Part shown: positions 40,277 through 63,494 of the stretch, one piece after another
Layout: every line of letters begins with the position of its first letter
How positions within the stretch are numbered: position 1 is the first letter of the stretch
Origin: Tagaea sp.
GTDB taxonomy: Bacteria; Pseudomonadota; Alphaproteobacteria; CACIAM-22H2
Assembly: GCA_965279525.1 (NCBI GenBank)
Contig: CBDIIB010000005.1
Coordinates: 1,120,001-1,184,000, forward strand
Direction: 5' to 3'
Length of the DNA stretch: 64,000 nt
Notes under the pieces: generated by a model
Seen by the model: the letters and a program-made list of their open reading frames with translations, nothing else
Told to the model about the DNA's origin: nothing
Database searches by the model: none
Made by a program: the position numbers and the translations under genes

Positions 40277-42097
<1,821 letters not shown>

Positions 42098-42331
42098 TTC
42101 CGGGGTCCTGCGCGATGTGGAAGAAACCGGATTCTCGCTCAATTCGTTAAAGAAAGCGTTAGCCGTGATGCTTGCTGACGCGCCGGGGTACCGCGATCTG
42201 CACGTTCGATGCGATGCCGCACGCCGGCAACCGCCTGCCGGCGCCCGATCCGGGATCCTGCGCGGTTTGTTGTCACGTCACATCTGAAATTGTAGAAACG
42301 ATCCTCTGCAATTTCTGGACGGCAAATTTGT

Positions 42332-43182
42332 ATGGTCGCGCGCGTCGGCACGGTTGCGTTCCACGGGGTCGAGACGGTTGCCGTCGACGTGCAGGTGCAG
42401 GTCGCGTCGGGGGCCCCTGCCTTCGCCGTGGTGGGGCTGCCGGACAGTGCGGTCAAGGAAAGCAAGGAGCGCGTGCGTGCCGCCCTTGCGGCGATCGGGC
42501 TCGCGTTGCCGGGCAAGCGCATCACCGTCAACCTCGCCCCCGCCGACCTTGCCAAGGAGGGTGCGCACTTTGATCTTCCCATCGCCCTTGGCCTGCTCGT
42601 CGCGATGGGCGCGGTCGCGGCCGAGCAGGTCGCTCGCTACGTCGTGCTCGGCGAACTGACGCTTGACGCGCGCATCCTGCCCGTACCCGGCGTGCTGCTC
42701 GCGGCGATGGCGGCACACGGCCGCGATCTGGGGCTCGTGTGCCCGGAAGCCTGCGGCGGCGAAGCCGCGTGGGCGGCCGACGCGCGCGACTTCGAGATCG
42801 TCGCCCCGCCCACGCTGCTGTCGCTGCTCAACCATCTGCGTGGTGCCCAACTTCTGGCCCGCCCGCAGCCGCGCCATGGGGTCGCGCGCGTGCCCGGCCC
42901 CGATCTTCGCGACGTCAAGGGACAGGAGACCGCCAAGCGGGCCCTCGAAGTGGCGGCCGCCGGCGGCCACAACCTCTTGATGGTCGGCCCGCCGGGGGCC
43001 GGCAAGTCGATGCTGGCGCGCTGCCTGCCGGGCCTGCTGCCGCCGCTGACGGCGGCCGAAGCGCTGGAGATCTCGACCGTGCAGTCGCTTGCGGGCCTGC
43101 TCGGCGACGGGCGCATCGCGAGCAGCCGCCCGTTCCGCGACCCGCACCACACCGCCAGCCACGTGGCGCTGATCGGCGGCGG
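42332..43182 (+). pseudogene. comM: ComM/YifB Mg-chelatase-like ATPase, 5' fragment interrupted by an insertion
   Basis: VVGLPD.AVKES.ERV, NLAPADLAKEG..FDLPIA, GPPGAGKS, RPFRDPHHTAS..ALIGGG, then abrupt AT-rich sequence; Walker B half missing. Confidence 0.93.
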
Positions 43183-43251
43183 TGGAAACGGACAAAGATA
43201 TTGCCCGAAATCCTATATTGATGCCCGAAATAATTAATAACATATCGAAAT
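43183..43251 (+). repeat. Transposon end with 20-bp-period repeats (candidate TnsB sites)
   Basis: TGGAAACGGACAAAGATATTG, then CGAAAT at 43206, 43226 and 43246 (TGCCCGAAAT twice). Confidence 0.65.
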
Positions 43252-43282
43252 ATAATGGCTAAATAATCGATCTATTAGACAT

Positions 43283-45151
43283 TTGTCTCCTGAACTTAAT
43301 TGTCGAGTCGATTTTTCGAACGTTTTCAGTATTCTTCCGATAGTTGTGTCCTGCGAGATCGGAACGGGGCTGGCATTGCTGAAGTATAAGGTCGATTGGA
43401 ACGGTCGCACTGGCAAGCGGTGGGAGCTGATGTTCTTGGGCAAGATTTATTCAATGCCCAAAGGCGGTTCTCAGCACATGGTCGACGCGGTGTTTTCGAG
43501 CATAGACGCCCGAAGGGGCCAATATGAAATTCACACCAAACGAATAGGAATTGGCGAACTTCCGTACTTAATTCCTGGCAGCATTTGGGTAAGCAAGATT
43601 CGGGCGGGCGAACACTTCATCCAGATCATTAATCCTGTCGAGTTTGGCGAAAAGGAAATCAACACACTCAATTTGTTCAATGCGGAAACTGTTCCCCAGA
43701 TCGAACTGGCGGATTTCGAAAATTTCAAAGACCCCCTGAGGCTCTTTCGATCCCTCAGGGCCTATTCACGGATGCCAGTGTTCAGTATCGACATTAAGAA
43801 CAATCCGAATTTCAAGATTTTCATTCCGCCTATAGAGCTCTTTCGATTTACGTTCGCGAAGACAACTCGTCTTGCCGTCAAAATTACGCATCGGACGATG
43901 GATGATCTGGCCACTCACGTGCGGTCTCAGGATATCGACGGCAAACGGGTCGTAACGCTGAGATCGTCGGTTCCAAAATCGAGATCACTGACGACCGATG
44001 AGGCTCAAGCTCTTGCAACGGCCTATGACACCGGTCTGGCTTCAGAGTTTTCGCAAAGCGGTTGGAGCGCCGTTCGGCGATCTGTCGATGAGTACGGCGA
44101 ACCGATTAAAGATGGGGAATTTCTCAAAGGCAAATTTTTCTGGAAGACCGGCGATAAGTTTCGGTCGATTGGCCACATGTTGGATCTTGGAAATAAAGTG
44201 TATGCGTTTTTCGTGCAGGGGATACTCGAAACGAATCATCACCCTTCGTTCAACAGGATCGATATTCTCGAGTGCCAAAGCATCAAGAGGCAAACTGACT
44301 ACGATCAACGCAAGAACATGTATCCGGGTGCCGTTACTGCTACCATCGGCGAAGAGATCGAATCGGTAGAAGGGCCCAAGACGGCGCGCGCTTCGGCGAA
44401 ATATACAGTTCAGCTTCCGGAGCCAGAATTGGGGGTTGCTAAGATCGAGGTCTTAAAGATCGAAGAATCAACCGACGACTACGAAACCGACAACAAGAAG
44501 GTTATCGGAGGAGATAAGCCGAAAGCATCTTCGACAGGAGAGGCGGTAGGCAATAACGGAAGGATCTCTGGGTTGGAAGTAGATCAGGCTGATAATCAGG
44601 AATTCGATTCTTTGCGGGAAATTAAAATTCTCTGGGATGCTGCCCTGAAGATACAAGAGGATTTGAAATTCGAAGTTTGCTCGGTGAAATCGGATAGACC
44701 CGCCGCATCGGGCGTAAGGCGCGGCGATAAGACCGCTCAACTATGTCAGTTCTATCCCAAGTCCGGTGAAGCGCGGCACAAATGGTCGACGAAAAGGATT
44801 CGGGGGAAAACGTTCGTTCGTCGCGCACTATGCGTGCAGTTCAAAAATAATAAAAAATTTGCGTACGCGATCGAGGTTGAGCGGTTTTCTGAGAACGACA
44901 ATTATTGCCTTTTCACGTTCAGTTTGAACAGCCAGGCTGAGATCAAACCCGAAATGCTAGATCAATTTCTCTTAATTCTTGCGAACTCGGAAAGTCGCCG
45001 ACTCGCAAAAGATTTGCCGAACAGCCTCGGATTGACGTCACTCAAATTTCCCCATTACGAGACACGGCAAAGCGTAGATGGTCTTGCCAACGCAATTGGC
45101 CCATTCCTTTTCAACAATCTGGATGGACTGATGTTGGATATACGGAAGTGA
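43283..45151 (+). CDS. TnsE-like Tn7 target-selection protein
   Basis: Colinear motif similarity to E. coli Tn7 TnsE as recalled: IFIPPIELFRFTF, acidic linker, SSTGE, RRALCVQF..AYAIEVE, FPH..DGLANAI; true start may be 43376. Confidence 0.65.
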   Translation: MSPELNCRVDFSNVFSILPIVVSCEIGTGLALLKYKVDWNGRTGKRWELMFLGKIYSMPKGGSQHMVDAVFSSIDARRGQYEIHTKRIGIGELPYLIPGSIWVSKIRAGEHFIQIINPVEFGEKEINTLNLFNAETVPQIELADFENFKDPLRLFRSLRAYSRMPVFSIDIKNNPNFKIFIPPIELFRFTFAKTTRLAVKITHRTMDDLATHVRSQDIDGKRVVTLRSSVPKSRSLTTDEAQALATAYDTGLASEFSQSGWSAVRRSVDEYGEPIKDGEFLKGKFFWKTGDKFRSIGHMLDLGNKVYAFFVQGILETNHHPSFNRIDILECQSIKRQTDYDQRKNMYPGAVTATIGEEIESVEGPKTARASAKYTVQLPEPELGVAKIEVLKIEESTDDYETDNKKVIGGDKPKASSTGEAVGNNGRISGLEVDQADNQEFDSLREIKILWDAALKIQEDLKFEVCSVKSDRPAASGVRRGDKTAQLCQFYPKSGEARHKWSTKRIRGKTFVRRALCVQFKNNKKFAYAIEVERFSENDNYCLFTFSLNSQAEIKPEMLDQFLLILANSESRRLAKDLPNSLGLTSLKFPHYETRQSVDGLANAIGPFLFNNLDGLMLDIRK

Positions 45152-45484: not shown

Positions 45485-45760
45485 GTGACCGTGACCTGCC
45501 AGACCTGCCGCAACTGGGAACCGAATGAAACCGGCACTCGCGGCCTGTGCCGATATGCGCCGCCGCGCAGCCAGATCGTCCTCTTTGGGTCGGACGACTT
45601 CGAGCTCAAAGCAGTCTGGGCAACGACCTCCCGCGAGGATCGCTGCGGAGCCTGGGTCAGCACACACCTACTCAATCGGGCGTCCAGTTGGCCTCCCTCA
45701 GGCACCAAACACCCCTTCAAAGAGAGGGCGCATGACAAGCCCTCCGATATGGAGAAGTAG
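45485..45760 (+). CDS. Small Cys-rich hypothetical protein (phage-type motif)
   Basis: CQTCRNW...GLCRYAPP...WATT..DRCGAW; stop lies 1 bp before the ATPase ATG; start uncertain. Confidence 0.6.
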   Translation: MTVTCQTCRNWEPNETGTRGLCRYAPPRSQIVLFGSDDFELKAVWATTSREDRCGAWVSTHLLNRASSWPPSGTKHPFKERAHDKPSDMEK

Positions 45761-45761
45761 C

Positions 45762-47138
45762 ATGTACATCCCGCACTACGAATCCGACTTCGTGAGGTTT
45801 GCCTACTGGGTCCGCCCGCCCAGCATCAATGAAATTGGCATCATGCGAGCCCGCCACTTTGGGCGGGCGCTCATGGACCACCCGTCACTGGCCGGCATCG
45901 AGGTATTTGACGACGAGGCCAAGACGCTGGAGCGGGCGCTCGAGTTCCGCAAAGCCAATCGCCCAGGACTCTATATCGCCTGCCTTGTCTATCTGGCGCT
46001 CCAGAACAACCCAATCGCTTGCCTCACCCTGGCAGGGATCCTCATGCAGCGCGCGCAGTTCAAGGACCCGCCGAACCAGCGCATGCTCCTCCTGCGGGCG
46101 ACCGGCTGGCTCAAAGCGGCAGATTCCATGAAATTCAATGAGAACTTTGGCTTCCCGCAAGAAGCGCTCTCGCGGATCGAGAAGGCCTCGAGTGCGGCCG
46201 ACAATGGGAAAATCTCCGAAATACGCCGTCAGATCGAGCGAAACGAGCGGAGAGTGACCCTCATCGAGAGCGTACTCCCGAAGTGGAAGTCAGAGAACGG
46301 AAGCTCCGACAAGTATCGGTGCCTGACGGAGCCCCTCCAGCTTCAGGGAGACCTGACTCCGAACCATGCCAAAGCGCTGCTCGATGCCCTTCGATCCGAA
46401 TATCCGTGGGCGGACGACCTGCTCACGGACATCGAGACCGCATTGACCCTGTCTATTGCCTCCAATAAGCCGTGGCTGTCGCTACCGCCCCTGCTACTGG
46501 TCGGGTCACCTGGAATCGGAAAGACCCGCTTCGCCCGGCGCCTGGCGGAACTCACCGGTGTGCCGATCCGGATCGTCAATACCGGCGGCTCGACTGACAA
46601 TCGGGATTTCTCCGGGACAGCGCGCGGCTGGAACACAGCCCATCCGGCCCGCGTCATCGAGATACTTCGTGAGACGGAAGTGGCAAACCCGATCGTCCTG
46701 CTCGACGAGATCGACAAAGCAGGTGGTGGCTATCGGAATGGCCGGATCACGGCAACGCTTCTGACGATGCTGGAGCCCGAGACACGGGCCCGCTTCTACG
46801 ACGAAGCTCTAACCACGAATGTCGACCTCTCCTACGTGAACTGGATCCTCACAGCGAATGACGTCCAGCTCCTCGGACGGCCGCTTTTGTCACGTCTACG
46901 GGTCATCCATATGCCGCCACCACCGGTCTCCGCGGCGCGGCAAATCGTCGAGACAGTACTCAAGGACCTGGCAGCTCGCTATGGCTGGCCGGAAGGGGCA
47001 ATGCCGACGCTGGAGCCTGAAGTCCACACGGCACTCATTAATGCAATGTCCAAAGGTGCGTCCCCGCGGAACATCTCTGTGATGGCCGAGCAGGTCCTGG
47101 CGATCGAGCTGAAGTGGCGACGTACTGCTCTGAACTGA
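45762..47138 (+). CDS. Lon-like AAA+ ATPase without a protease domain
   Basis: LLLVGSPGIGKT (Walker A), NPIVLLDEIDKA (Walker B), LLTMLEPE, VDLSYVNWILTAN, PLLSRL; ends shortly after the lid; alternative start 45732. Confidence 0.88.
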   Translation: MYIPHYESDFVRFAYWVRPPSINEIGIMRARHFGRALMDHPSLAGIEVFDDEAKTLERALEFRKANRPGLYIACLVYLALQNNPIACLTLAGILMQRAQFKDPPNQRMLLLRATGWLKAADSMKFNENFGFPQEALSRIEKASSAADNGKISEIRRQIERNERRVTLIESVLPKWKSENGSSDKYRCLTEPLQLQGDLTPNHAKALLDALRSEYPWADDLLTDIETALTLSIASNKPWLSLPPLLLVGSPGIGKTRFARRLAELTGVPIRIVNTGGSTDNRDFSGTARGWNTAHPARVIEILRETEVANPIVLLDEIDKAGGGYRNGRITATLLTMLEPETRARFYDEALTTNVDLSYVNWILTANDVQLLGRPLLSRLRVIHMPPPPVSAARQIVETVLKDLAARYGWPEGAMPTLEPEVHTALINAMSKGASPRNISVMAEQVLAIELKWRRTALN

Positions 47139-47195
47139 CGCAACTCATGTGTGCTGCCGCACATTTGCGATCGGCATGAAGATTGGAGACTCAGT

Positions 47196-47804
47196 ATGCT
47201 CAAACGCCCGCTTCCAACGCGCGACTGCGGCGCCGGCTGGAACAAACTGATCGATACGCTCATTGCCGATCTTGATGTCATAACGGGTAGGCGAAAAGTC
47301 GAGGTCGTGCAAATCAAGGAGAAGTTCGGTGCATTGCGATTCTACCTCGCGGGCAAAACTAAGCTGCCGTCCGAACTTCTGGGCCGCATACAAGCGCGCA
47401 TCGGCGAAGCAGAAAGAAGTTCCGCCGTTATCTGCGAAGAATGTGGAGAACCGGGGATGATCCATACGTGGGACGGCAGAGGGTACTACTGCGCCCGCTG
47501 CCAGCGACATGCGCGGGAGATCGCGCGAACGAACCTCACGAATTATCGCGGGCAAGATTGGAATCTCGACCGAAACTGGCGTCTGGTCGATAAAAGCGGG
47601 GTCGCACTTTCTGAGAAAATCATTAGTGGATTGGACATGGCCGCAGCTCAGTCCATTGCACAAATCGCGGAGGACTCGAAACGCCTAGCGGACGGGATGG
47701 CCAACGCCATCCGACAGAGGGCTGGGATAGTTCCGAATGTGCGAGTCCACATGCCGGCGGACGCAGCACATCATTGGCAAGCCGCGCGATTCCTAGCGGA
47801 ATAG
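47196..47804 (+). CDS. Hypothetical protein with QIKEKFGALRFY motif and CxxC...CxxC
   Basis: CGAGW, VVQIKEKFGALRFYL, CEECG, CARC; GGAGA RBS. Confidence 0.75.
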   Translation: MLKRPLPTRDCGAGWNKLIDTLIADLDVITGRRKVEVVQIKEKFGALRFYLAGKTKLPSELLGRIQARIGEAERSSAVICEECGEPGMIHTWDGRGYYCARCQRHAREIARTNLTNYRGQDWNLDRNWRLVDKSGVALSEKIISGLDMAAAQSIAQIAEDSKRLADGMANAIRQRAGIVPNVRVHMPADAAHHWQAARFLAE

Positions 47805-47915: not shown

Positions 47916-48587
47916 ATGGTCATCATCGATATAGAAGTTTCATCGTTGGTGGACGGATACCCGATCGAGATTGGCTGGGCACGCTCAGACGGAGAATGTC
48001 GTGCCTATCTAATAAGGCCGACCGATGAACTGATCGCTCATACGAAATGGGATCCTGTTTCCCAGAGCATCCATGGCATATCACGTGAGCTTCTTGAGCA
48101 GCGGGGAATGCCAATCGACGAGGTTGTCGCAAATCTCAATAGGGATCTCGACGGTGAGAGAATCCTTTCGGATGCCCCTTCACATGATTGGCAATGGCTG
48201 ATGGTCCTCCTCGAGTTCTCGAGTGTCGAGCGGTTTACCTTTGAAATGCTGAAAATGCCGGTTGATTCTCTCTTGCTACGCGAAGCAAATGAGCACGGCA
48301 TAAAAGGTACAGATCTTCGCTATGTGCTCGAAAAGCAGGAGCGAGCGCATGTTCATGCAGCGGCACACGATGCGGCAAGCTGGGCTGCGGCCGTAGAGGC
48401 CATTTCGGCTGCGAGTCGCGGCGATACCGCCGCTGTTGCCAGTATATTTGAGACCTGGCGGTCTCGTGCAACTGCAGCAGCACCGTGGCGGGAGAGTTCA
48501 AGTGGCAAAGAAAAAGGTGGCCAAAAGAGTGACACGAAGGAGCAAGCCCGCAAGGCAGAAACCCAAAATGAGCGGAAGGACGCTTAA
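47916..48587 (+). CDS. DEDDh (DnaQ-like) 3'-5' exonuclease
   Basis: IDIE (ExoI), PIEIGW, IHGI, SDAPSHD (ExoII), H.A..DA (ExoIII). Confidence 0.82.
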   Translation: MVIIDIEVSSLVDGYPIEIGWARSDGECRAYLIRPTDELIAHTKWDPVSQSIHGISRELLEQRGMPIDEVVANLNRDLDGERILSDAPSHDWQWLMVLLEFSSVERFTFEMLKMPVDSLLLREANEHGIKGTDLRYVLEKQERAHVHAAAHDAASWAAAVEAISAASRGDTAAVASIFETWRSRATAAAPWRESSSGKEKGGQKSDTKEQARKAETQNERKDA

Positions 48588-48639
48588 TGCCGAGAAGGGA
48601 TTCGGCTAATGGCTGCTCGAAACCGCCGACACACCGGAT

Positions 48640-48928
48640 ACTGTTCGAGAACTACTTTGCCCGGTGATCTCGAAGTCAAGATCGGCTGCTTGGTCGATCA
48701 CTACAACCACTGCCGATACCACGAAAGCCTCGGCAACCTCACGCTGACCGACGCCCACACGAGGCGCGGGCAGGCCATTCTGGAAAGGAGGGAAGCGATC
48801 AAGCGCAGGACCATCGAGTACCGCCGCTTGCTGCACCGGCAAGCGACCGCCTAAACTGCCAACCCAGATGTACCGAAGCCTCTGTTAGCAGCAGCCTCAA
48901 ACTGCCCCGATTGTTCTGCCGACGGACA
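48640..48928 (+). mobile_element. IS3/IS481-type transposase C-terminal remnant with terminal repeat
   Basis: LPGDLE..I..VDHYNH.RYHESLGNLT..RGQAILERREAIKRRTIE; end sequence ...TTCTGCCGACGGACA. Confidence 0.8.
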
Positions 48929-49026: not shown

Positions 49027-49971
49027 TCATGCGCCGCGTCCTGAAGACCGCGCCTTGCCGGCGCCGAGCCCGAGCGTGGCGACATCGTTCTTGAGCGCCG
49101 ACAGTATCATACGAACCGGCGCAAGCGTTCGCATTGACGCGCGATACGTCACGCCGCTGCGGATTGTCCAGTCATAGCCGCGCACGTTCAACGCCTGCAA
49201 GCCGGGGGTGACGCTGGGGCGGAGTAGTGGCTTGGGCAGGCTTGTCAGGAATCCATCGTTGCGCACAAGCTTCAGCGCCAGGTCGAGCGACTCGGTCGTG
49301 ACCGTGTCGCGTGGCGGCGTTATGCCGTTGGCGCTGAACACCCGTTCGATTTGCGCACGCGTGAGCGTATCATAGCTGAGCATCACCCAAGGCCTGCGGG
49401 CGATCTCGCCCAACGGCGCTTCGGCTAAGCGTGCGAGCGACGATTGCCGCGCGGCGACGACGCAATTGGCTTGATCGTAGAGGAACAATTCGTCCAGCCC
49501 TTCGCCCGATATCGGCTCCTTAGCCAGGCCGCCGGCATAGAGGCTGATCTCCCCCGCATGTAGAGCGGGAAGCAACAGCGCGCCGACGCCGATGCGCACC
49601 GAAACGTGCAGATTGGGATAGTCGCGCGCCAGCCGCGCCAGAATGCTGGGCATGAACACCGACGCATAGGTGGGGCCGATGCCGATGCGCAGTTCGCCAC
49701 GTGCGCCGTCGCGCGTGGCGGTCAGTTCCATCAGCGACCCGTTCCATTCGCCCTGAATCGTGCGCGCGCGTCGATAGAAGACCTGCCCCATCTCGGTCAA
49801 CACAACCCCGCGCGCGGAACGGTCGAACAGCGGCGTGCGCAAATGTTCTTCGAGCAGTTGCAATGACTTCGACAGTGCAGGCTGGCTGATGTTCAGCCTG
49901 CGCGCGGCACCTTGCACGCTCCCATGCTCCGCGACCGCCAGGAAATGCTGGATGCGCCAAATCTGTTCCAT
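49027..49971 (-). CDS. LysR-family regulator
   Basis: FLAVAEHGSVQGAARRLNISQPALSKS; divergent from the sulfatase operon. Confidence 0.93.
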   Translation of the reverse strand: MEQIWRIQHFLAVAEHGSVQGAARRLNISQPALSKSLQLLEEHLRTPLFDRSARGVVLTEMGQVFYRRARTIQGEWNGSLMELTATRDGARGELRIGIGPTYASVFMPSILARLARDYPNLHVSVRIGVGALLLPALHAGEISLYAGGLAKEPISGEGLDELFLYDQANCVVAARQSSLARLAEAPLGEIARRPWVMLSYDTLTRAQIERVFSANGITPPRDTVTTESLDLALKLVRNDGFLTSLPKPLLRPSVTPGLQALNVRGYDWTIRSGVTYRASMRTLAPVRMILSALKNDVATLGLGAGKARSSGRGA

Positions 49972-50057
49972 CGATTTCAGTTATATCTCATATCGACGAA
50001 AATATTACCCAAATCTGGCCGGGCGGCTAGAAAAGGAGCGTCCTGGGAGGGACGCCG

Positions 50058-51572
50058 ATGCGCGCCGTTTTCGTGCTTTTCGATTCGCTCAATCGACTTG
50101 CGTTGGGCTGCTATGGCGGCACGCAGATCGCCACGCCGAATTTCGACCGGTTCGCGCGCCGCGCGGCGACGTTCGACAATCACTATGCCGGGTCGCTGCC
50201 GTGCATGCCCGCACGCCGCGACATTCATACCGGGCGGCTCAACTTCATGCACCGCTCCTGGGGGCCGTTGGAGCCTTTCGACAATTCGCTGCCCGAGATC
50301 CTGAAGAAGGCCGGAATATACAGCCATCTGATAAGCGACCACTTCCACTACTTCGAGGACGGTGGCGCCACCTATCATAGCCGCTACAACACTTGGGAAT
50401 TCGTGCGCGGCCAGGAGAACGATCCCTGGGTCGCGATGGTCAAGCCGCCGATCGAGCGCTTCAAGGAAAAATATTCCGATCATCACTACAACGCACCCGG
50501 TGACTTTGTGCGCCGTCAGAACCAGATTAACCGCGAGAAGATCGTGGCGGAGGCGGATTTTCCCGGCCCGCAATGTTTCGAGCGTGCCTTTCGCTTTCTT
50601 GACGTGAATCGCGGCGCCAATGATTGGATGCTGCATCTCGAATGCTTCGATCCGCACGAACCGTTCCACGCGCCCGACCGATTCAAGGAGGCGTATCGTA
50701 CCGCCTATAACGGCCCGATCCTCGACTGGCCGAAATATGGGCCAGTCCGGGAAAACAAACTGGAGATCGCGGAGATCCGCGCGAATTACGCGGCCCTGGT
50801 TGCAATGTGCGACGCCTATTTCGGCAAGCTGCTCGACTATTTCGACGCGCACGACATGTGGAGGGATACGTGCCTGATCCTGACCACGGATCACGGCTTT
50901 CTGCTCAGCGAGCACGATTGGTGGGGTAAGAACCAGACGCCCTACTACGAGGAAATCTCTCATATTCCGACGATCGTCCATCATCCGGATCATGAGGCGC
51001 GTGCCGGCACCCGTGTGCGGGCGCTCTCGCAGACGACCGATCTGATGCCGACGATTCTGGACATCTTCGGCCTTCCCAGTCCACCCGAAACGACGGGAAG
51101 TTCCCTGCTGCCGCTGATCGCTGGGGCTCCGGGTCGCGAGGCCATCATTTTCGGCATGTTCGGCGGTCCGATCGGCATCACCGACGGGACGTACAGCTAT
51201 TTCCGCTATCCGCGTGACCTTTACGACGAGACGCTGGGAGAATACACGCTGATGCCAACGCATCTGGCTGGGTTCTTCAACGCCAACGAGTTGAAGACGG
51301 CAACGCTGGCCGGGCCGTTCGATTTCACCAAGGGTCTGAAACTGATGCGCTACAGCGCGCTCAACGAAGCGCGACGGCCGCCGGGCGCGAACAGCCGTAG
51401 CCAAGCGGGTTTCAAATCGGCGATCTACGACAACGCACGCGATCCCAGCCAACTGAACCCGATCGACCTGCCGCCGGTCGAAACGAAGCTGAAGGAAGCC
51501 GCGATCCGGCTGCTGCGCGCGCATGATGCGCCGCGGGAGTATTTCGAGTGGTTGGCGCTTGCGGCTGAATAA
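50058..51572 (+). CDS. Sulfatase (Cys-type, formylglycine-dependent family)
   Basis: FDSLNR, TPNFDRFA, CMPARR..HTG (CxPxR), DPHEPF, TTDHG. Confidence 0.93.
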   Translation: MRAVFVLFDSLNRLALGCYGGTQIATPNFDRFARRAATFDNHYAGSLPCMPARRDIHTGRLNFMHRSWGPLEPFDNSLPEILKKAGIYSHLISDHFHYFEDGGATYHSRYNTWEFVRGQENDPWVAMVKPPIERFKEKYSDHHYNAPGDFVRRQNQINREKIVAEADFPGPQCFERAFRFLDVNRGANDWMLHLECFDPHEPFHAPDRFKEAYRTAYNGPILDWPKYGPVRENKLEIAEIRANYAALVAMCDAYFGKLLDYFDAHDMWRDTCLILTTDHGFLLSEHDWWGKNQTPYYEEISHIPTIVHHPDHEARAGTRVRALSQTTDLMPTILDIFGLPSPPETTGSSLLPLIAGAPGREAIIFGMFGGPIGITDGTYSYFRYPRDLYDETLGEYTLMPTHLAGFFNANELKTATLAGPFDFTKGLKLMRYSALNEARRPPGANSRSQAGFKSAIYDNARDPSQLNPIDLPPVETKLKEAAIRLLRAHDAPREYFEWLALAAE

Positions 51573-51594
51573 AACCCGAATGGGAGGAGAAGCC

Positions 51595-52935
51595 ATGTTG
51601 GTCGAAAAATTCAAGGCCGTCTTTGGTGCCGTGACGCGGCGCGGCGCGCTGGCGGGTACGTTGGCGCTCGCCGCCGGATCGGCGTTCGCGCAAAACCAGC
51701 CGCCCATCACCATGGCGATCAATCAATCGCCCTGGCTCAAATCATTCGTCGCGGAAGTCGACGCCTACGAAAAGGCGACCGGCAACAAGGTCAAGCTCGA
51801 CGTGCTGCCATTCGGCGGCTTGCTTGAGAAAATCCGCAACTCTGTGCGCGGTCCGCAAGGCGAATACGACATCGTCAATATCAACTCGCTGTGGCTCGCC
51901 GAGATCTACTCGGGCGGATTCTTGGTGCCGCTGACCGACATTCGCGCCGGCTACAAGCTGCCGGAGGGCGTTCTGACGTTCGGGAATACCACCCATTGGA
52001 GCGCCTCGACCGGTACATTTTCCGCGAACGGTGCGCTTATGGGCGTGCCGGTCAACGGCAATGTCCAAGTCCTCTTCTACAACGTCGATGCCTATGCAGA
52101 GCGCGGCCTCAAGCCGCCCAAAACGTGGGACGATCTCGTCGCGAACGCGCAGGCGATCCATAAAGGCGGCAAGTACTATGGCTTCACGCCGCGCGCCGCC
52201 CGCGATTCGATCGTCTACAACTTCACGCCCTATCTATTCAGCCACGACGCCGCCTTCGTGAATATCATCGGCGCCGGCAAGGCGGAGGTTGTCGTCAACA
52301 GCCCAAAGGCCCTGAAGGCGCTTGAAGTCTACGTGAAGCTCGCGACCGAATCCGGACCGCCAGGGCCGGGGAATATCGCGCAGGGCGAATTGATCCAACT
52401 TTTGGCGACCGGTCGGACCGCCCAGGCGATTGCCGTCATCGCGGCATGGGGGCAGCTCGAGGACCCCAAGGCATCGCGCGTCGTGGGCAAGATCAATGCG
52501 GCGCTTTTGCCTTCGGGTCCGAACGGCACGGTCGCGTCCAGTGCCGGACATTGGATCGCCGGCGTGCCAAAGAACGTTACGCCGGAGAAACAGAAGGCCG
52601 CTTTGGCGTTCCTCGACTGGTTTGCGGCGAAGCAGCGACAGGTGGACTACGTGCGCGCCGGCGGTGTGCCTGTGCGCGGCGACATCTCCAGCGCCGATCT
52701 GGGCGGCGGCGACGCGTTCCGCTTCATAGAAGCTTTCTCGCGCAACGCCGAGCATGCGGTGATGGGGCTGCCCTTCGCTCAGGCGGTCGAAACCTCGGAT
52801 GCGATGGCGCTGAGCCTCAACCGCGCGGTGATCGGAGAAATGACGCCAGCCAAAGCGCTCAACCAGGCGGCGTCCGACCTCGCGCGAATTCTGGAACGCG
52901 GCGGCTTCGCCGTCACTCGCCTTCCGGAGTTGTGA
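51595..52935 (+). CDS. Carbohydrate-type ABC transporter substrate-binding protein
   Basis: Tat-like TRRGAL leader, YDIV, LFYN, PKTWDDL. Confidence 0.9.
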   Translation: MLVEKFKAVFGAVTRRGALAGTLALAAGSAFAQNQPPITMAINQSPWLKSFVAEVDAYEKATGNKVKLDVLPFGGLLEKIRNSVRGPQGEYDIVNINSLWLAEIYSGGFLVPLTDIRAGYKLPEGVLTFGNTTHWSASTGTFSANGALMGVPVNGNVQVLFYNVDAYAERGLKPPKTWDDLVANAQAIHKGGKYYGFTPRAARDSIVYNFTPYLFSHDAAFVNIIGAGKAEVVVNSPKALKALEVYVKLATESGPPGPGNIAQGELIQLLATGRTAQAIAVIAAWGQLEDPKASRVVGKINAALLPSGPNGTVASSAGHWIAGVPKNVTPEKQKAALAFLDWFAAKQRQVDYVRAGGVPVRGDISSADLGGGDAFRFIEAFSRNAEHAVMGLPFAQAVETSDAMALSLNRAVIGEMTPAKALNQAASDLARILERGGFAVTRLPEL

Positions 52936-52939
52936 TGGT

Positions 52940-53914
52940 GTGGAAACCGGATCGCCCCCGCGCCCGCGACTCGCGCGCGATGGATACCTCCTCATGAATT
53001 CCAAGCGACTCACTGAGAAAGCCGCGCGCAATAGGCGCTGGATCGCAATCTCGCTGACGCCGGTCGTACTGCTTTTCGTCGTCCTGACGGCGTTTCCTGT
53101 CCTCAATCTGCTGGGTTTGAGTCTATTTCACGTCGAATGGAAGCAAGGCGCCTCGAATTTCGAGTTCGTCGGCTTGGAGAATTTCCAGCGTTTGTTCCTG
53201 GCGGAGCAGATTTTCTGGGACGGTGTGCGCAATACGCTGATTTTCGCCATGGTCGCGGTCGGGTTCCAGATGGTCATCGGATTCTCGATAGCTCTGGCCG
53301 TCAAGACTTCGGGGGTATTCGGACGTTCCGCCTTGACCGCGATCTTTCTTCTCCCCATCGTCGTGCCGCCGATTGTCATTGGCACGATGTGGCGCTTGAT
53401 CATGGGGCGCGAGTTCGGGCTTGGGAATGCGCTGTTGGGCTTGCTGGGTTTCGGTCCGGTCGACTGGTTGGGTAATCCGAATTTGGCGCTCGCCTCCGTG
53501 ATTTTCGTCGATATCTGGCACTGGACGCCTTTCGTTTTTCTGCTAATGCTCGCCGGGCTCGAATCCCTCGACGAGGAGGTATTAGAGGCGGCGCGAATGG
53601 ATACGCGTTTGCGCTGGCAGGAAATACGTCATGTCATATTGCCGATGATGATGCCGACGATTGTCGTGACGCTGCTTTTTCGTATAATTCTGACTTTTAA
53701 GGTGTTTGACGAAGTCTATCTGTTGACATCAGGCGGACCGGGAACGGCTACCGAAGTCGTCAATTTTTCGATCTACCGTACTTTCTTCCGTCAAGATCAG
53801 GTCGGCTACGGCTCCGCGATGTCGATCGTGACGCTGTTCGCGATCAGTTTGATCATCATTCTCGCCCGCGGCTATGCCCAACGCCGTGCCACGAAGAAAG
53901 CGGCGTCGATATGA
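52940..53914 (+). CDS. Sugar ABC permease (MalF-type)
   Basis: FVGLENF, DIWHWTPF, EAARMD; start may be 52994. Confidence 0.92.
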   Translation: METGSPPRPRLARDGYLLMNSKRLTEKAARNRRWIAISLTPVVLLFVVLTAFPVLNLLGLSLFHVEWKQGASNFEFVGLENFQRLFLAEQIFWDGVRNTLIFAMVAVGFQMVIGFSIALAVKTSGVFGRSALTAIFLLPIVVPPIVIGTMWRLIMGREFGLGNALLGLLGFGPVDWLGNPNLALASVIFVDIWHWTPFVFLLMLAGLESLDEEVLEAARMDTRLRWQEIRHVILPMMMPTIVVTLLFRIILTFKVFDEVYLLTSGGPGTATEVVNFSIYRTFFRQDQVGYGSAMSIVTLFAISLIIILARGYAQRRATKKAASI

Positions 53915-54738
53915 AATCCCGTCTCGGCACGCGCGCGCTCGCCAACATGGCCGCGTGGGGCTATGCGCTCGTTATCTTGGGACCGACGCTGTGGGTCTTG
54001 TCGAACGCGTTCAAATACAAGATCGACATAATCACGGGCGCCACGCTTTCGCCTCTGACTCTGGACAATTTCGAGGAATTGCTGTTTTCCCGCCAATCAG
54101 AGTTCCTCGTCAATTTGTTCAACAGCACGCTGATCGGACTCCTCTCCACGGCGATCGTAATCGTGATCGCGACAATGGCGGCATTCACGCTCGCGAGCCT
54201 GGAGGTCCGTCCCTGGGTGCGCTGGGCCGTGCTGGGATGGGCGCTGATGTTCCATATGTTACCCACGCTAACTTTCGTCGGGTCGTGGTATCTGATGTTT
54301 TCCTCGATCGGTCTGCATGGCACCTATGCCGCGCTCGTCGCGACGCACGCCGTCCACAACCTGCCGATGGCGCTGTTCCTGATGATGAGTTTCGTCGGCG
54401 CTCTGCCGCGCGAGCTGATTCAGGCGGCGCGGATGGATGGATGCACCAACGCGCAGATATTCTGGCGGATCGCGTTTCCGCTGGTGCGCGGCGGCATGAT
54501 CGCGGCGACGGCGCTGACCTTCATCTTCTCCTGGAGCGACTTTGCGATCTCATTGACGCTTTCGTCGCGCGCGACGATGACAGTGCCGGTCGCGATCTCT
54601 ACCTTCGCACAGGAATACGACATCAAGTATGGCGAGATGGCCGCTGGCACAATGCTGTCGATCGTGCCGGCTCTGATCCTGATCCTCGTCGGCCAGAAGT
54701 TCATCGTGCGCGGCCTTCTCGCGGGTGCCGTGAAATGA
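53911..54738 (+). CDS. Sugar ABC permease (MalG-type)
   Basis: TLDNF, LPRELIQAARMDG, FIFSW. Confidence 0.92.
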   Translation: MKSRLGTRALANMAAWGYALVILGPTLWVLSNAFKYKIDIITGATLSPLTLDNFEELLFSRQSEFLVNLFNSTLIGLLSTAIVIVIATMAAFTLASLEVRPWVRWAVLGWALMFHMLPTLTFVGSWYLMFSSIGLHGTYAALVATHAVHNLPMALFLMMSFVGALPRELIQAARMDGCTNAQIFWRIAFPLVRGGMIAATALTFIFSWSDFAISLTLSSRATMTVPVAISTFAQEYDIKYGEMAAGTMLSIVPALILILVGQKFIVRGLLAGAVK

Positions 54739-54780
54739 GACGGCCGCACAAATTTACCCTAGCGCTTCCAGGTGTCGCTG

Positions 54781-55860
54781 ATGTCTGATCTTTCACTCCG
54801 AGAGCTCCGGAAGTTCTACGGTGGATTCGAAGTGATTCCGCCGCTCGATCTGGATATCCGCAGCGGCGAATTCGTAGTGCTCGTGGGGCCGTCGGGCAGC
54901 GGAAAGTCGACGTTGTTGCGGATGATCGCGGGGCTCGAAAGGATCGACGGCGGCGCGGTGAGTATCGACGGAGAGGATGTGACGGCTCGCGACGCTGGCG
55001 ACCGAGATATGGCAATGGTGTTCCAGTCCTACGCGCTTTACCCACATATGACGGTCGCGGAGAACATGACTTTCGCGCTGCGCATGCGTGGCACGCCTGA
55101 AGCCGTGGTCCGTGAGCGGCTCTCGAACGCACTACGGATGCTCTCGCTCGAAGGTCTCGAAGGGCGAAAGCCAGGACAGCTTTCGGGCGGTCAGCGCCAG
55201 CGGGTGGCGATGGGTCGTGCGATTGTACGCCAGCCGCGCGTCTTCTTATTCGACGAGCCCTTATCGAATCTTGACGCCAAGCTACGCGCGCGCACGCGTC
55301 TCGAGTTGCGCGAATTGCACGATCGATTGAAGGCGACGTCGATTCTCGTGACTCACGACCAGATCGAGGCGATGACGATGGCTGATCGCATCGTGCTGCT
55401 CGATCGGGGACGGATTCAGCAGATCGGCGCGCCGCGCGAGATATACGAACGGCCGAAGAACCGGTTCGTCGCGACGTTCATCGGGTCGCCCGAAATCAAC
55501 ATTTTCGATGGCCTTGCGGCCGTTCGGGACGGCCGGTGCTGGTTCGGTGATCTGGAGCTGCCGATGGCGGGTGCGGGCTACGAAAAGGCGACCGCGCTTG
55601 GGGCACGTCCCGAAGCATTCGAATTGCTTTCTGGCCCTGCTCCGGGCGCGTTGGCCGCGACCGTCGCCGCTGTCGAGTATACCGGGTCCGACGCCTATGC
55701 ATTGGCGAGGGCCGGCGCTTGGCAATTGGTAGTCAAACTTCCGGCCGATCTGAAAGTCGAAGGACATATCGTCGCGACCGGCGACAAGCTCCATATCCGC
55801 CTCGGATCGGAAGGCTGGCACCTGTTCGATGCGGCCGGCGCGCGCATTGAACGGCAATAG
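54781..55860 (+). CDS. Sugar ABC ATP-binding protein (MalK/UgpC-type)
   Basis: [39 protein letters not shown]. Confidence 0.95.
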   Translation: MSDLSLRELRKFYGGFEVIPPLDLDIRSGEFVVLVGPSGSGKSTLLRMIAGLERIDGGAVSIDGEDVTARDAGDRDMAMVFQSYALYPHMTVAENMTFALRMRGTPEAVVRERLSNALRMLSLEGLEGRKPGQLSGGQRQRVAMGRAIVRQPRVFLFDEPLSNLDAKLRARTRLELRELHDRLKATSILVTHDQIEAMTMADRIVLLDRGRIQQIGAPREIYERPKNRFVATFIGSPEINIFDGLAAVRDGRCWFGDLELPMAGAGYEKATALGARPEAFELLSGPAPGALAATVAAVEYTGSDAYALARAGAWQLVVKLPADLKVEGHIVATGDKLHIRLGSEGWHLFDAAGARIERQ

Positions 55861-55862
55861 CG

Positions 55863-56840
55863 ATGCGGGGCGAACATACGCCGCGCGATTTCGTTGGCGA
55901 TCCGCGCCAAATCGCGTCGGTCCGCCGCATCGTGCTAGCCGATGGCGCGGAATCGGGCGTGGAGGCCTTGGCGTTCTCGACGGGCGGTGGCCTCGATTTT
56001 TGGATATTTCCGGGTCGATTGCTCGATATCGGCACGCTGTCCTGGCGCGGTGCGCAGATCGCTTGGCAAAGCCCTGCCGGGTTTCGGCCGCTGCTGTCGC
56101 CGACGCGCGGCGGGCGCGATTTCGGCCGCGCCTTTGGCGGATTCCTTAATACTTGCGGCTTCGATCATATCCGCCAGCCTGCGGACGGCAAGCCGATGCA
56201 CGGTTCCGCGCCGTTTATGCCAGCCCGCTTGATCGGATACGGCGAAGCTTGGGACGCAACCGAGCCAATTCTCTATTGCGAGGGCGAGGCGGTGGTCTGG
56301 GCGTTCGGCGCAGGCGGCCATCGGGTACGCCGACGGATCGAGGCGCCGATCGGCGGTGCAACGATCCGTATCGTCGATCGCGTCGAGATCGTCGGCCCGA
56401 CACCGCTGCCGATCATGACGCTCTATCATTTTAATCTGGGCTATCCGCTCCATCGCGCGGGCACGAGCATCCTATTCGACGGTGCGGATGTATCAGGGCG
56501 GTTGCCGCAACGAGAATCTGCGGCGTTGCCGTCGAAACTGTATCCGGCGAAAGGCGATCGCGCCGCCTGCGGTGTGAGGGGCGGCGGCGGGATCGAGATA
56601 GAGTTTCGTTGGAACGCGACGACTCTGCCTTGGCTCCAGCTTTGGCGCGATCTTCGTCCGGGAAACGGCGTGCTCAGTGTCGAGCCATGCTCGACGGGGC
56701 GCAATCCGGACGGGACGAATGCCGAAGTTCAGCCGACGGCGACGGGCGACGGGATTACGTTCGAAGTCGAAATTTGCGTCGGCGATGCGCCGGATGCAGA
56801 GCCGGGGGACAGCGTTCGGCGCGACGACGACACCCGCTAG
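55863..56840 (+). CDS. DUF4432/aldose 1-epimerase-like protein
   Basis: R.LDIG, GFLNTCG, PMHG, LYHFNLGYP, VLSVEP. Confidence 0.8.
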   Translation: MRGEHTPRDFVGDPRQIASVRRIVLADGAESGVEALAFSTGGGLDFWIFPGRLLDIGTLSWRGAQIAWQSPAGFRPLLSPTRGGRDFGRAFGGFLNTCGFDHIRQPADGKPMHGSAPFMPARLIGYGEAWDATEPILYCEGEAVVWAFGAGGHRVRRRIEAPIGGATIRIVDRVEIVGPTPLPIMTLYHFNLGYPLHRAGTSILFDGADVSGRLPQRESAALPSKLYPAKGDRAACGVRGGGGIEIEFRWNATTLPWLQLWRDLRPGNGVLSVEPCSTGRNPDGTNAEVQPTATGDGITFEVEICVGDAPDAEPGDSVRRDDDTR

Positions 56841-56877
56841 CCAGCGAGAGCGACATCGCGTTTCCAAACGAAGGCGT

Positions 56878-56905
56878 TGGCCTGCCCCGGGTTTCGTGGA
56901 CACCT
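56878..56905. mobile_element. Orphan IS3-family-like terminal inverted repeat
   Basis: TGGCCTGCCCCGGGTTTCGTGGACACCT resembles IS3-family ends as recalled; no transposase attached. Confidence 0.55.
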
Positions 56906-57016
56906 GCACAAGAGTGACACTCAAACTGGTATTCGATCACAGGAACGGTGATTCCTTGGTGCTTGCTCGACAGAGGAAGGAGTGAGCCGAGGTTCTGGCC
57001 TGCATTCGTTAGAATC

Positions 57017-61725: not shown

Positions 61726-61743
61726 CTGGCCCTTCTGCTCGCT

Positions 61744-63276: not shown

Positions 63277-63384
63277 TTGCGAGCCTCCCGATCTGAAATG
63301 CCCGATTTGTACGGGCTCTGACTTGAGTCGGGCATGGCCCGAACTGCGCCACCTTTAGCGATATGGTGATGGCCAGTCAATAAA

Positions 63385-63468
63385 CTTTGATCAAACATTA
63401 ATTCAATAGGTAAAATAGCCTCATTAGAAGCAAGATATAAGCGGCGCATAAAAATGGTTTGATCAAAG
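63385..63468. promoter_or_regulatory. Pair of TTTGATCAAA palindromes (candidate GntR operators)
   Basis: CTTTGATCAAAC at 63385-63396 and its exact reverse complement GTTTGATCAAAG at 63457-63468 in the divergent intergenic region. Confidence 0.65.
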
Positions 63469-63494
63469 CTGCAGATTTCGATAATCCTAATTTC

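Follow-up and report, generated by a model that had tools for sequence, protein, structure and literature searches.

A lone gene for a highly divergent TnsE-like protein inside the left end of a Tn7-like element that splits comM of Tagaea sp.

We found that a gene lying directly inside the left end of a Tn7-like element in Tagaea sp. encodes a protein whose homology to TnsE is almost full-length and whose two-domain plan is the same, as profile alignment and a structural prediction show. In Tn7, TnsE directs insertion towards plasmids that are being replicated. The gene and the left part of the element are located in the window, as we call the whole stretch of 64,000 nucleotides that was analysed. 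Most probably (at about 80% in our estimate), the gene encodes a highly divergent TnsE, which would provide this Tn7-like cut-and-paste element with a second target selector of the structure-specific type.

The gene reads inward from the left end, where it stands alone, far from the core genes. The mechanical call is an open reading frame (ORF) of 622 aa at 43283..45151 on the forward strand with a TTG start, and the earliest start codon available to it lies 100 bp in from the left end. We place the gene at 43346..45151 on the same strand. The start is uncertain; the candidates are GTG at 43346 (601 aa), which is the start called in the protein collection, TTG at 43376 (591 aa) and ATG at 43430 (573 aa). 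Since 'G..WEL' is conserved before Met50, one of the two upstream starts is favoured. A preliminary description, made from the letters alone, had reported a low-GC ORF of 622 aa starting within about 200 bp of a transposon end. The ORF, the low GC content (0.52 and 0.49 over 43001-45000 versus 0.69 in 42001-43000) and the end were all confirmed, and alignment with homologues places the likely start 163-247 bp inside the left end.

The relationship to TnsE is hardly visible in ordinary searches. Pfam gave no match to the protein at E <= 0.1, PF18623 (TnsE_C) included, and neither PADLOC nor NCBIfam gave a match. The NCBIfam result is uninformative because that library also misses L012, a bona fide TnsE relative. 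PDB sequence searches did not return TnsE; the protein gave one irrelevant match (E 1.8) and the family profile A2 gave two pilins (E of about 0.45). The family is tiny, with 8 clusters among 1.84 billion representatives, and word-indexed searches for homologues, whether by the protein or by A2, recovered 3 close sequences only. PF18623 was matched, below its threshold, by one of the ten family members: P0010, the most distant one, reached 14.6 bits against a cut-off of 26.7 (E 0.029), and this weak match falls in the region of the C-terminal domain.

Profile-profile alignment gave a different picture. When A2 was aligned by hhalign with seven PF18623-bearing TnsE proteins, the probability was 98.96% with an E-value of 8.8e-18 over 454 columns, spanning positions 61-570 of the query and 57-542 of the template, at an identity of only 14%. 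Alignment with three TnsEs well above the Pfam cut-off gave 98.2% and 5.7e-14 over 474 columns, and alignment with four left-end TnsEs of another Tn7-like clade gave 96.8% and 2.2e-10 over 484 columns. As controls, the reversed profile gave an E-value of 0.43 and column-shuffled profiles gave at least 0.47 in 19 of 19 cases. L012, which serves as anchor, shares 47.6% identity with proteins that stand beside TnsD on A. baumannii plasmids and are annotated as TnsE. In the preliminary description three motifs had been paired with motifs of E. coli Tn7 TnsE. All three were aligned by hhalign, here with L012 as the anchor instead of the E. coli protein: IFIPPIELFRFTF with VHIPQIEFARVLF, SSTGEAVG with LSTDEATIDG, and VRRALCVQF..YAIEVE with RRSVLEVIV..VILEID.

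The AlphaFold model of the protein, built on a 10-sequence alignment, has a pLDDT of 68.8, with 116 residues under 50; a version built on 3 sequences (pLDDT 28) was discarded. The predicted plan consists of residues 1-283, a low-confidence stretch at 284-392, and residues 392-569, which matches the plan of E. coli TnsE (N-terminal domain 1-331, linker 332-380, C-terminal domain 381-538; PMC12153342). The C-terminal domain, residues 392-569 (44603..45136, forward strand), is predicted to have the dsDNA-binding fold of the TnsE C-terminal domain. VIA-align placed it with 5d17_H (Z 10.3, rmsd 3.6, 142 of 156 residues aligned), 5d16_A (Z 10.1) and 9d5l_A (Z 9.6), the last of which is the TnsE C-terminal domain bound to DNA. 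These TnsE matches align 142-149 residues at an rmsd of 3.6-3.8, and the next unrelated entry scores 6.7. Foldseek ranked the TnsE C-terminal domain (5d17) at positions 1-4 with a probability of 0.94-0.96, although at an E-value of only 0.05. Thus TnsE heads both structural searches and the hhalign comparison is nearly full-length, and the TnsE identification of the preliminary description holds on profile as well as on predicted fold.

The N-terminal domain (43430..44278, forward strand; residues 1-283 of the 573-aa form) is beta-rich with OB-fold-like parts, and its blocks are mostly at pLDDT 70-93. Over model residues 73-271, VIA-align matched it to PriB 5wqv_B (Z 6.5, rmsd 2.9, 76 of 91 residues aligned) and to SSB 1se8 (Z 6.1). 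Both are below the tool's caution level of 8, under which a match may mean just a common arrangement. These OB-like matches at Z of about 6 agree with a statement in excerpts of Faure et al. 2023 (PMC10293859) that the TnsE N-terminus consists of two PriB-like domains. The most conserved block of this domain, IFIPPIELFRFTF (43817..43855, forward strand), has P133, E136 and R139 invariant or nearly so in alignments A2 and A3, and its IPPIELFRF aligns by hhalign with the conserved TnsE block IPQIEFARVLF / IPQIEFARV (P-x-x-E-x-x-R). This P-x-x-E-x-x-R block is a candidate for the beta-clamp-binding motif that Parks et al. reportedly described for TnsE in 2009. A conserved N-terminal motif of TnsE binds the processivity factor (PMC4678854).

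The Tn7-like element is 43,290 bp long, from window position 43183 (TGGAAAC...) to C5:1206472 (...GTTTCCA), and splits comM. The 5' part of comM, truncated by the insertion, is located at 42332..43182 on the forward strand and belongs to a YifB-family Mg-chelatase-like AAA ATPase. It matches Pfam ChlI (6.8e-38), Mg_chelatase (1.4e-39, profile positions 1-96 of 207) and TIGR00368 (8.8e-82, positions 5-285 of 499, at window 42356-43189). The 3' part is 43.3 kb away at G000:C5:1206473-1207135 and covers TIGR00368 positions 282-499. The 5-bp target-site duplication GGCGG abuts the left terminus at 43178..43182 and the right terminus at L008:10474-10478, and the same duplication also borders the element of the Tagaea MAG. 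In-silico removal of the element and one GGCGG yielded a single open comM frame of 509 codons. The frame is split at codon 284, and the codons for LFLDE (Walker B) begin 52 bp past the right terminus. Eleven of the 12 other genomes of the genus have an intact comM.

The left end (43183..43251, forward strand) consists of the terminus TGGAAAC and, after it, three direct repeats that each close with CGAAAT and are spaced 20 bp apart (43197-43211, 43217-43231 and 43237-43251), and TGCCCGAAAT is present twice exactly within it. Counted from the termini, repeats are located at +24, +44 and +64 on the left side and at +24 and +48 on the right; these sub-terminal repeats are presumed to be TnsB-binding sites. 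The termini form an imperfect inverted repeat, TGGAAACGGACAAAGATATTGCCCGAAAT versus TGGAAACTCCCAAAGTATTCGCCCGAGAT, that is perfect in its outermost 7 bp, and the terminal sequence of the element includes TGGAAACNGACAAAG. The termini start with TGG, not the usual TGT; non-TGT ends of Tn7-like elements have been noted in the literature.

The assignment to Tn7-like elements is based on the presence of TnsA and TnsB, a TnsC/TniB ATPase, a TniQ-family selector, a 5-bp duplication, and inverted ends with repeats. The tnsA, tnsB and tnsC genes are at the window equivalent of 82.9-86.3 kb (PF08722, 2.5e-12; Mu-transpos_C/rve; TniB, 9.5e-42); together with tniQ they occupy the right end and face the Walker B side of comM. 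Because the Tn7 core is beyond the window, the earlier remark that no transposase genes occur in the window was correct for that core. The order beyond the window is transport and sulfatase genes, a CD-NTase/Cap15 CBASS, tniQ, a type II CBASS, tniB (tnsC), tnsB and tnsA, with the type II CBASS sitting between tnsC and tniQ. TniQ is 396 aa long. A Pfam-based search, which a very divergent or short form could escape, found a TnsF-like gene beside tniQ neither in this element nor in that of the Tagaea MAG; all other ORFs of at least 300 aa in the element carry different Pfam assignments.

Cargo on the forward strand adjoins the TnsE-like gene. The first cargo gene, at 45525..47138 (probable start 45762), encodes an AAA+ ATPase with a Lon-like ATPase module and without the protease domain (Pfam AAA, 3.8e-15; TIGR00763, the ATPase part of lon only, 102 bits against a cut-off of 608). 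It is 53% identical to L020:13594-15114, is absent from L024, and in the protein atlas falls in generic AAA ATPase clusters only. The second, at 47151..47804, encodes a 217-aa protein that has only a weak zinc-ribbon match (E 0.018) and 29.5% identity over 132 aa to L024:10862-11224. The third, at 47916..48587, encodes a DEDDh-type exonuclease-like protein (PADLOC DEDDh model, 5.5e-09) that is 71% identical to L020:15147-15740. From 49027 to 64000 Pfam identifies metabolic cargo, namely a LysR regulator, a sulfatase, two ABC-transporter sets and a hydrolase, and the cargo continues to C5:1206472.

In each of the three recovered contexts (the window, L020 and L024), no other gene separates this one from the left end; the end and its position in comM are shared, and the distance to the terminus is 163-193 bp. 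These contexts were recovered with the narrower alignment A4, whose peptide patterns reach close members only and not the more distant contexts of P0006, P0008, P0010, P0002 and P0003. The three TnsE-like proteins are only 25-28% identical and the adjoining cargo differs: L024 has AbiE and other genes as neighbours, without the AAA+ or exonuclease gene. Therefore, the sole constant partners of the gene are the transposon end and the core. In both elements whose far end could be reached, tnsA-tnsB-tnsC-tniQ is at the right end beside the 3' half of comM, so that homologues of the gene are associated with split comM and with an opposite-end Tn7 core, the two associations for which the preliminary description had proposed a survey. 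Between the two complete elements TniQ is 61% identical and the TnsE-like protein 25%, TnsA and TniQ being about 60%.

The closest published counterpart is Tn6022. The comparison uses published descriptions of Tn6022, whose TnsE is Orf4. Excerpts of Faure et al. 2023 (PMC10293859) report that the comM-targeting Tn6022 encodes a distant TnsE opposite its core genes, likewise weakly detected by PF18623. According to excerpts of a 2024 NAR paper (PMC11014353), this distal TnsE was described and tested and supports TnsABC+TnsE transposition into the F plasmid, the pathway being detectable only after overnight induction. Both elements interrupt comM close to its Walker B codons and are flanked by a 5-bp duplication, have the core at one end, and carry near the left end a lone remote TnsE homologue barely visible or invisible to PF18623. 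For Tn6022, comM homing plus plasmid targeting has been proposed in the excerpted parts of PMC10293859 and PMC11014353. The comM selector of Tn6022, however, is TnsF, a tyrosine-recombinase-like protein of about 498 aa that shares an operon with tniQ, whereas the element in the window has no TnsF-like gene by the Pfam-based search and its tniQ is parted from tnsC by the type II CBASS. It differs further in its alphaproteobacterial host, of the same genus as the Tagaea MAG, and in its termini, TGG/TGA instead of TGT. No PLSDB sequence exceeds 37% identity to its TnsB.

Canonical Tn7 TnsE (5d17, 5d16, 9d5l; PF18623) resembles the protein in length (521-595 aa in the aligned relatives versus 573-601 aa), full-length profile homology, predicted C-terminal fold, a putatively OB-like N-terminal domain, a predicted disordered linker and the P-x-x-E-x-x-R block. 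In contrast, identity is about 14%, the protein is below the Pfam threshold, and its gene is alone at the left end reading inward, whereas tnsE of Tn7 is the last gene of the right-end tnsABCDE operon. A PF18623 search of 81 genomes of G111's family found canonical TnsEs only. Another clade with left-end TnsEs (G065 and G085; L021-L023) shares the layout, with tnsA-tnsB-tniB-tniQ at one end, an inward TnsE at the other and defence cargo between, but its elements adjoin a ribonucleotide-reductase/TSCPD gene instead of being in comM. Its left-end TnsEs reach 23-24 bits with PF18623, just under the cut-off, and are no closer to the present family than canonical TnsE is; that of L023 had no match in PLSDB. 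Canonical and G065/G085 TnsEs match each other over 140 C-terminal columns only (92.6%, E 4.6e-7), whereas the present family matches both groups full-length. It is conceivable, though we put it forward only tentatively, that the family is a third deep TnsE lineage bridging the operon-type Tn7 TnsEs and the left-end TnsEs, within an undescribed alphaproteobacterial clade that homes into comM without TnsF.

If the gene encodes a divergent TnsE, the element may work as follows. TniQ would direct homing into comM, as the Tn7 and Tn6022 literature suggests. The TnsE-like protein would recognise replication structures, i.e. 3'-recessed ends and, through the P-x-x-E-x-x-R block, the sliding clamp, and would then recruit TnsC and TnsAB. 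The host's sliding clamp, DnaN, is encoded at L025:1495-2628. Rare transposition into conjugating plasmids would then be possible, and with it horizontal spread of the element. We infer plasmid targeting and clamp binding by analogy; no copy of the family was found on any of the 72,556 PLSDB plasmids, so that use of the plasmid pathway stays at that level. The preliminary description had proposed a split, two-pathway element. The split is real, with the selector at the left and the core at the right, and the two-pathway part is reasonable, because the profile and structure matches and the association with a Tn7-like core agree with it. Neither outcome that the preliminary description had named as refuting, a missing profile or structural match to TnsE or homologues unconnected with Tn7-like cores, was observed. 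Neither idea is new, since excerpts of PMC10293859 and PMC11014353 report the same for Tn6022.

A descendant of TnsE might have been repurposed, either helping the 396-aa TniQ to recognise comM or selecting a DNA structure or site other than replicating plasmids. This would fit the apparent lack of TnsF, the comM selector of Tn6022, beside tniQ in either complete element, the strict co-occurrence with comM insertion in the three contexts and the absence of a plasmid-borne copy from PLSDB. [quoted passage not shown] The TnsE C-terminal domain, moreover, binds duplex DNA without sequence specificity (PMC12153342). That the three proteins are so dissimilar despite a common insertion site may be taken as a sign of repurposing, but TniQ is far better conserved between elements than the TnsE-like protein, as one would predict were TniQ the protein that recognises the common comM site.

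The same fast divergence, against about 60% identity for TnsA and TniQ, together with the extremely small family, could also indicate an inactive relic, a tnsE gene carried at the left end and no longer part of transposition. Decay is, however, not what the family looks like: frames of 573-603 aa are intact in 8 of the 10 collected members, with conserved blocks across both domains, P0002 (87% identical) is untruncated, and the distance to the transposon end is conserved in all three contexts, so we regard a relic as very unlikely. No RNA run containing the stretch is listed, which is neutral on this point. Hardly credible at all is a cargo role apart from transposition, such as membership of a defence module formed with the AAA+ ATPase and the DEDDh exonuclease, in which case the likeness to TnsE would be that of a shared DNA-binding fold only. 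The homology to TnsE covers both domains rather than one fold and PADLOC has no match for the protein, even though the two genes adjoin it in two of the three elements and defence cargo abounds in the left-end parts of Tn7-like elements, as stated in excerpts of Benler et al. 2021 (PMC8649781). A divergent TnsE acting as target selector is thus the reading we prefer.

The distal-TnsE arrangement itself is not new, as it is already described for Tn6022-type elements in the excerpted parts of PMC10293859 and PMC11014353. Our picture of Tn7 targeting is therefore unchanged, the Tn6022 architecture being known and its TnsE pathway having been tested experimentally. What is new is a TnsE lineage in an alphaproteobacterial genus, in an element where no TnsF was found by the Pfam-based search and a CBASS lies between tnsC and tniQ. 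The clade may already figure among the 552 TnsEs of Faure et al. 2023. It adds an alphaproteobacterial, TnsF-less example of comM-homing Tn7-like elements, with a second selector at the opposite end, and informs the evolution of TnsE. If the bridging lineage is true, a TnsE at the left end, away from the core, would be an ancient trait of Tn7-like elements that has been widely missed, and TniQ alone would account for one more origin of comM homing. TnsE-type selectors reach past the detection limit of Pfam-based surveys, and 'hypothetical' genes at the left ends of Tn7-like elements may be target selectors, which is of value for annotation.

The public run X3 contains both the occupied and the empty comM site: the element is present as a separate contig of 43,355 letters, and another contig passes from window position 43183 directly into the 3' flank of comM. 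Because both sites occur in one sample, the clade may be active now, and the activity of the element can be tested in this run.

The gene directly inside the left end of the Tn7-like element that splits comM is a 622-codon ORF from TTG at window position 43283 to 45151 on the forward strand. The GC content around it is 49-52%, right after host DNA of 69% GC. The preliminary description regarded it as a lone TnsE-like gene just inside the transposon end, and the layout read across the whole element agrees; this observation is confirmed, and the interpretation of the gene as TnsE is supported. There are three candidate starts. The protein collection entry has 601 aa from GTG 43346, the homologue P0002 (87% identical) starts at the position equivalent to TTG 43376, and the homologue P0003 starts at the position of Met50, which is ATG 43430. 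Because a 'G..WEL' motif just ahead of Met50 is kept in more distant members of the family alignment, an upstream codon 163-193 bp from the terminus is more likely than ATG 43430. In two other contexts, a Tagaea sp. MAG (L020) and a JGI metagenome (L024), the distance from the start ATG to the terminus is 183 and 180 bp.

The protein had no match in Pfam or NCBIfam at E <= 0.1 and none in PADLOC, and PDB sequence searches with the protein or its profile did not recover TnsE. The NCBIfam blank carries little weight, because the same library also misses a bona fide TnsE relative (L012). The family is tiny, with just 8 proteins at E <= 1e-3 when 1.84 billion cluster representatives were searched exhaustively in HMMER with a profile of 3 sequences. 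The family alignment contains 10 sequences, 8 of them of 573-603 aa. One member, P0010, has a sub-threshold match to PF18623 (TnsE_C; E 0.029, 14.6 bits), in the very region that the preliminary description had aligned by eye.

For profile-profile comparison, 401 genomes from the same phylum were searched for PF18623; 8 had a match, 5 of them above the cut-off, and seven matching proteins were aligned. The best of the PF18623 proteins, L012, is 47.6% identical to the annotated 'Tn7-like element transposition protein TnsE' of A. baumannii plasmids, where these annotated relatives adjoin TnsD. In hhalign the family matched the seven proteins with a probability of 98.96% (E 8.8e-18, 454 columns; query 61-570, template 57-542). 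As controls, the reversed template gave E 0.43 and column-shuffled templates gave E >= 0.47 in 19 of 19 valid shuffles. The family also matched three clearly PF18623-positive proteins (98.2%, E 5.7e-14, 474 columns) and four TnsEs encoded at the left end of elements from a different clade (96.8%, E 2.2e-10, 484 columns), while these two groups matched each other in the C-terminal part only (92.6%, E 4.6e-7, 140 columns). The family therefore appears to be intermediate between the two kinds of TnsE already known.

The AlphaFold model (pLDDT 68.8, 10 sequences) predicts a beta-rich N-terminal part (residues 1-283) and a C-terminal domain (392-569), joined by a stretch of low confidence (284-392). 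A matching domain plan is given for E. coli TnsE in PMC12153342 (residues 1-331 for the N-terminal domain, 332-380 for the linker and 381-538 for the C-terminal domain). In Foldseek the four highest-ranking PDB matches all came from 5d17, the structure of the TnsE C-terminal domain, as separate chains (probability 0.89-0.96, E 0.05-0.15). VIA-align gave Z scores of 10.3 (5d17), 10.1 (5d16) and 9.6 (9d5l, the TnsE C-terminal domain on DNA) over 142-149 aligned residues; the next entry, which is unrelated, scored 6.7. The N-terminal part matched PriB and SSB with Z of about 6, which is weak alone; these matches are in line with Faure et al. 2023 (PMC10293859), who describe the TnsE N-terminus as composed of two PriB-like domains. 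Thus, the profile comparison and the predicted fold both bear out the preliminary assignment to TnsE.

Window positions 42332-43237 encode the first 285 profile positions of the YifB/ComM Mg-chelatase-like ATPase and then break off. The rest of the profile, positions 282-499, was located by a search of the organism's own genome and lies 43.3 kb further downstream (G000:C5:1206473-1207135). Both junctions were read, and they delimit an element of 43,290 bp from window position 43183 to C5:1206472. Its termini are TGGAAACGGACAAAGATATTGCCCGAAAT... on the left and, in reverse complement, TGGAAACTCCCAAAGTATTCGCCCGAGAT... on the right, and a GGCGG duplication adjoins both. Repeats ending in CGAAAT occur three times at the left end (+24, +44, +64) and twice at the right (+24, +48), counted from the respective terminus. 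Removal of the element and one GGCGG copy in silico yielded a single 509-codon comM frame, whose Walker B codons start 52 bp past the right terminus. The terminal letters are TGG at both ends of this element and at the left end of the MAG element, and TGA at the right end of the latter, the usual terminus of Tn7 being TGT; the positions in question are window 43183, L008:10473 (on contig C5 beyond the window) and L026:4139. Non-TGT ends and convergent comM targeting are mentioned among Tn7-like elements in PMC9881144.

The preliminary description had noted that transposase genes are absent from the window; the Tn7 core was found at the right end of the element, beyond the window. From that end inward come tnsA (PF08722), tnsB (Mu-transpos_C, rve) and a TniB-type tnsC, followed by a complete type II CBASS composed of patatin CapV, a DncV-like CD-NTase, E1/E2 Cap2 and JAB Cap3 (L008:2456-6903, window-equivalent ~78.4-82.9 kb), and then by tniQ (396 aa). 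The CBASS between tnsC and tniQ splits the core operon, and this is peculiar to the present element of the two whose far end was reached. A second, minimal CBASS, a CD-NTase with AGS-C sensor and a Cap15-like effector, lies directly downstream of tniQ (L007:10468-12578, window-equivalent 74.5-76.6 kb). Cargo genes for sulfatases, ABC transporters and regulators then fill about 25 kb, and at the left end lie a DEDDh exonuclease-like gene, an unknown gene of 217 aa, an AAA+ ATPase gene and, outermost, the TnsE-like gene. An 81-codon ORF (48609-48854, forward strand), in which Pfam gave nothing at E <= 1e-4, ends in a '...YNHCRYHESLGNLT...'-type sequence of the kind seen at the C-terminus of rve-type IS transposases, and probably represents what is left of an IS where the left-end module meets the metabolic cargo.

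Peptide patterns from a narrower alignment of close members (two patterns, one genome per species) found one relative, in the Tagaea sp. MAG, and a JGI metagenome scan found one more. In both, the 5' half of comM breaks off at ...ATCGGCGGCGG, after which comes TGGAAAC(A/C)GAC..., and the first gene inside is TnsE-like, 25% and 28% identical to that of the window. The 3' half of the MAG comM lies on a separate contig after ...TTTTCA|GGCGG. This far-end contig has tnsA (60%), tnsB (47%), tnsC (45%) and tniQ (61%) in an unbroken row, with tnsC adjoining tniQ. With the window included, the adjacency to split comM holds in 3 of 3 recovered contexts, and the arrangement with the TnsE-like gene left and the core right in 2 of 2 elements whose far end is reachable. 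Within one genus, G000 (the present genome) and G485/G401 carry two clearly different members of this element clade (TnsB 47%, TnsE-like protein 25% identical), inserted at one and the same point of comM and flanked by GGCGG in either case. The AAA+ gene, a Lon-like ATPase module without protease, and the DEDDh exonuclease-like gene form a pair (window 45525-47138 and 47916-48587; L020:13594-15740) that may be a common cargo or defence module. They are 53% and 71% identical between the window and L020, against just 25% for the TnsE-like proteins; L024 has AbiE and other genes as neighbouring cargo and lacks both. The MAG island ends after ~7 kb at a transposase-like remnant (L020:16350-17020), followed by a PEP carboxylase gene, the explanation being either a join made at an IS during assembly or a rearrangement. 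In an unrelated family (G065, G085), tnsA-tnsB-tniB-tniQ occupy one end and TnsE the other, at a different site; this TnsE is just under the PF18623 cut-off and adjoins a ribonucleotide reductase/TSCPD gene (L021-L023, on G065:C1 and G085:C15). That clade occurs in low-GC genomes, with Dnd-like and other defence cargo between the ends.

Homology, position, element anatomy and the modelled fold are established. In homing, TniQ would bind comM on the side of the Walker B codons and recruit TnsC, and TnsAB would insert the element 52 bp upstream of the Walker B codons, right end nearest. The TnsE-like protein would provide a second, low-frequency route, in which its C-terminal domain binds duplex DNA and its N-terminal domain reads 3'-recessed ends and the sliding clamp, leading to entry into conjugating plasmids. 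The IPPIELFRF block, conserved in the family, aligns in hhalign with the conserved IPQIEFARV block of TnsE; the latter block is presumably the motif that Parks et al. 2009 reported to bind the clamp. PMC4678854 states in general terms that TnsE binds the processivity factor through a conserved motif in its N-terminal part. Relatives of the family were found on 0 of 72,556 PLSDB plasmids, which counts against plasmid entry.

The split architecture proposed in the preliminary description is supported at this locus, yet it is a published feature, since a distal TnsE is described for the comM-targeting element Tn6022. Faure et al. 2023 report that Tn6022 TnsEs are weakly detected by PF18623 and confirmed by AlphaFold, and PMC11014353 (2024 NAR) names the distal protein TnsE(Orf4) and shows that, with overnight induction, TnsABC+TnsE mediate transposition into the F plasmid. 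Tn6022 has the comM selector TnsF, whereas no TnsF-like gene was found in the present element or the MAG element, either beside tniQ or, by Pfam assignment, among the other ORFs of 300 aa or more. What this locus adds is a TnsE lineage invisible to Pfam; an alphaproteobacterial clade apparently without TnsF, which supplements of published surveys may already list; a core operon interrupted by CBASS; and signs that the insertion site is currently polymorphic.

As to this polymorphism, comM is intact in 11 of 12 other genomes of the genus that were searched, the twelfth being the Tagaea MAG. In run X1, a 16-kb contig spans the junction of comM and the left end unbroken. In run X3, another sample with the same organism label and study, the element is a contig of its own (43,355 letters from window position 43154, depth 13.6), and a second contig passes from 43183 straight into 30 letters after the right-hand GGCGG, joining comM 5' to 3'. 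Run X3 holds an empty as well as an occupied comM site. The bubble in this assembly falls exactly at the boundaries (window 43154-43183), so the element limits are independently confirmed. Part of the population carries the insertion and part does not, owing to recent insertion, to loss or to a mixture of strains. A groundwater-metagenome contig (X5) has this junction and gene as well, with 15 differences in 2,286 letters.
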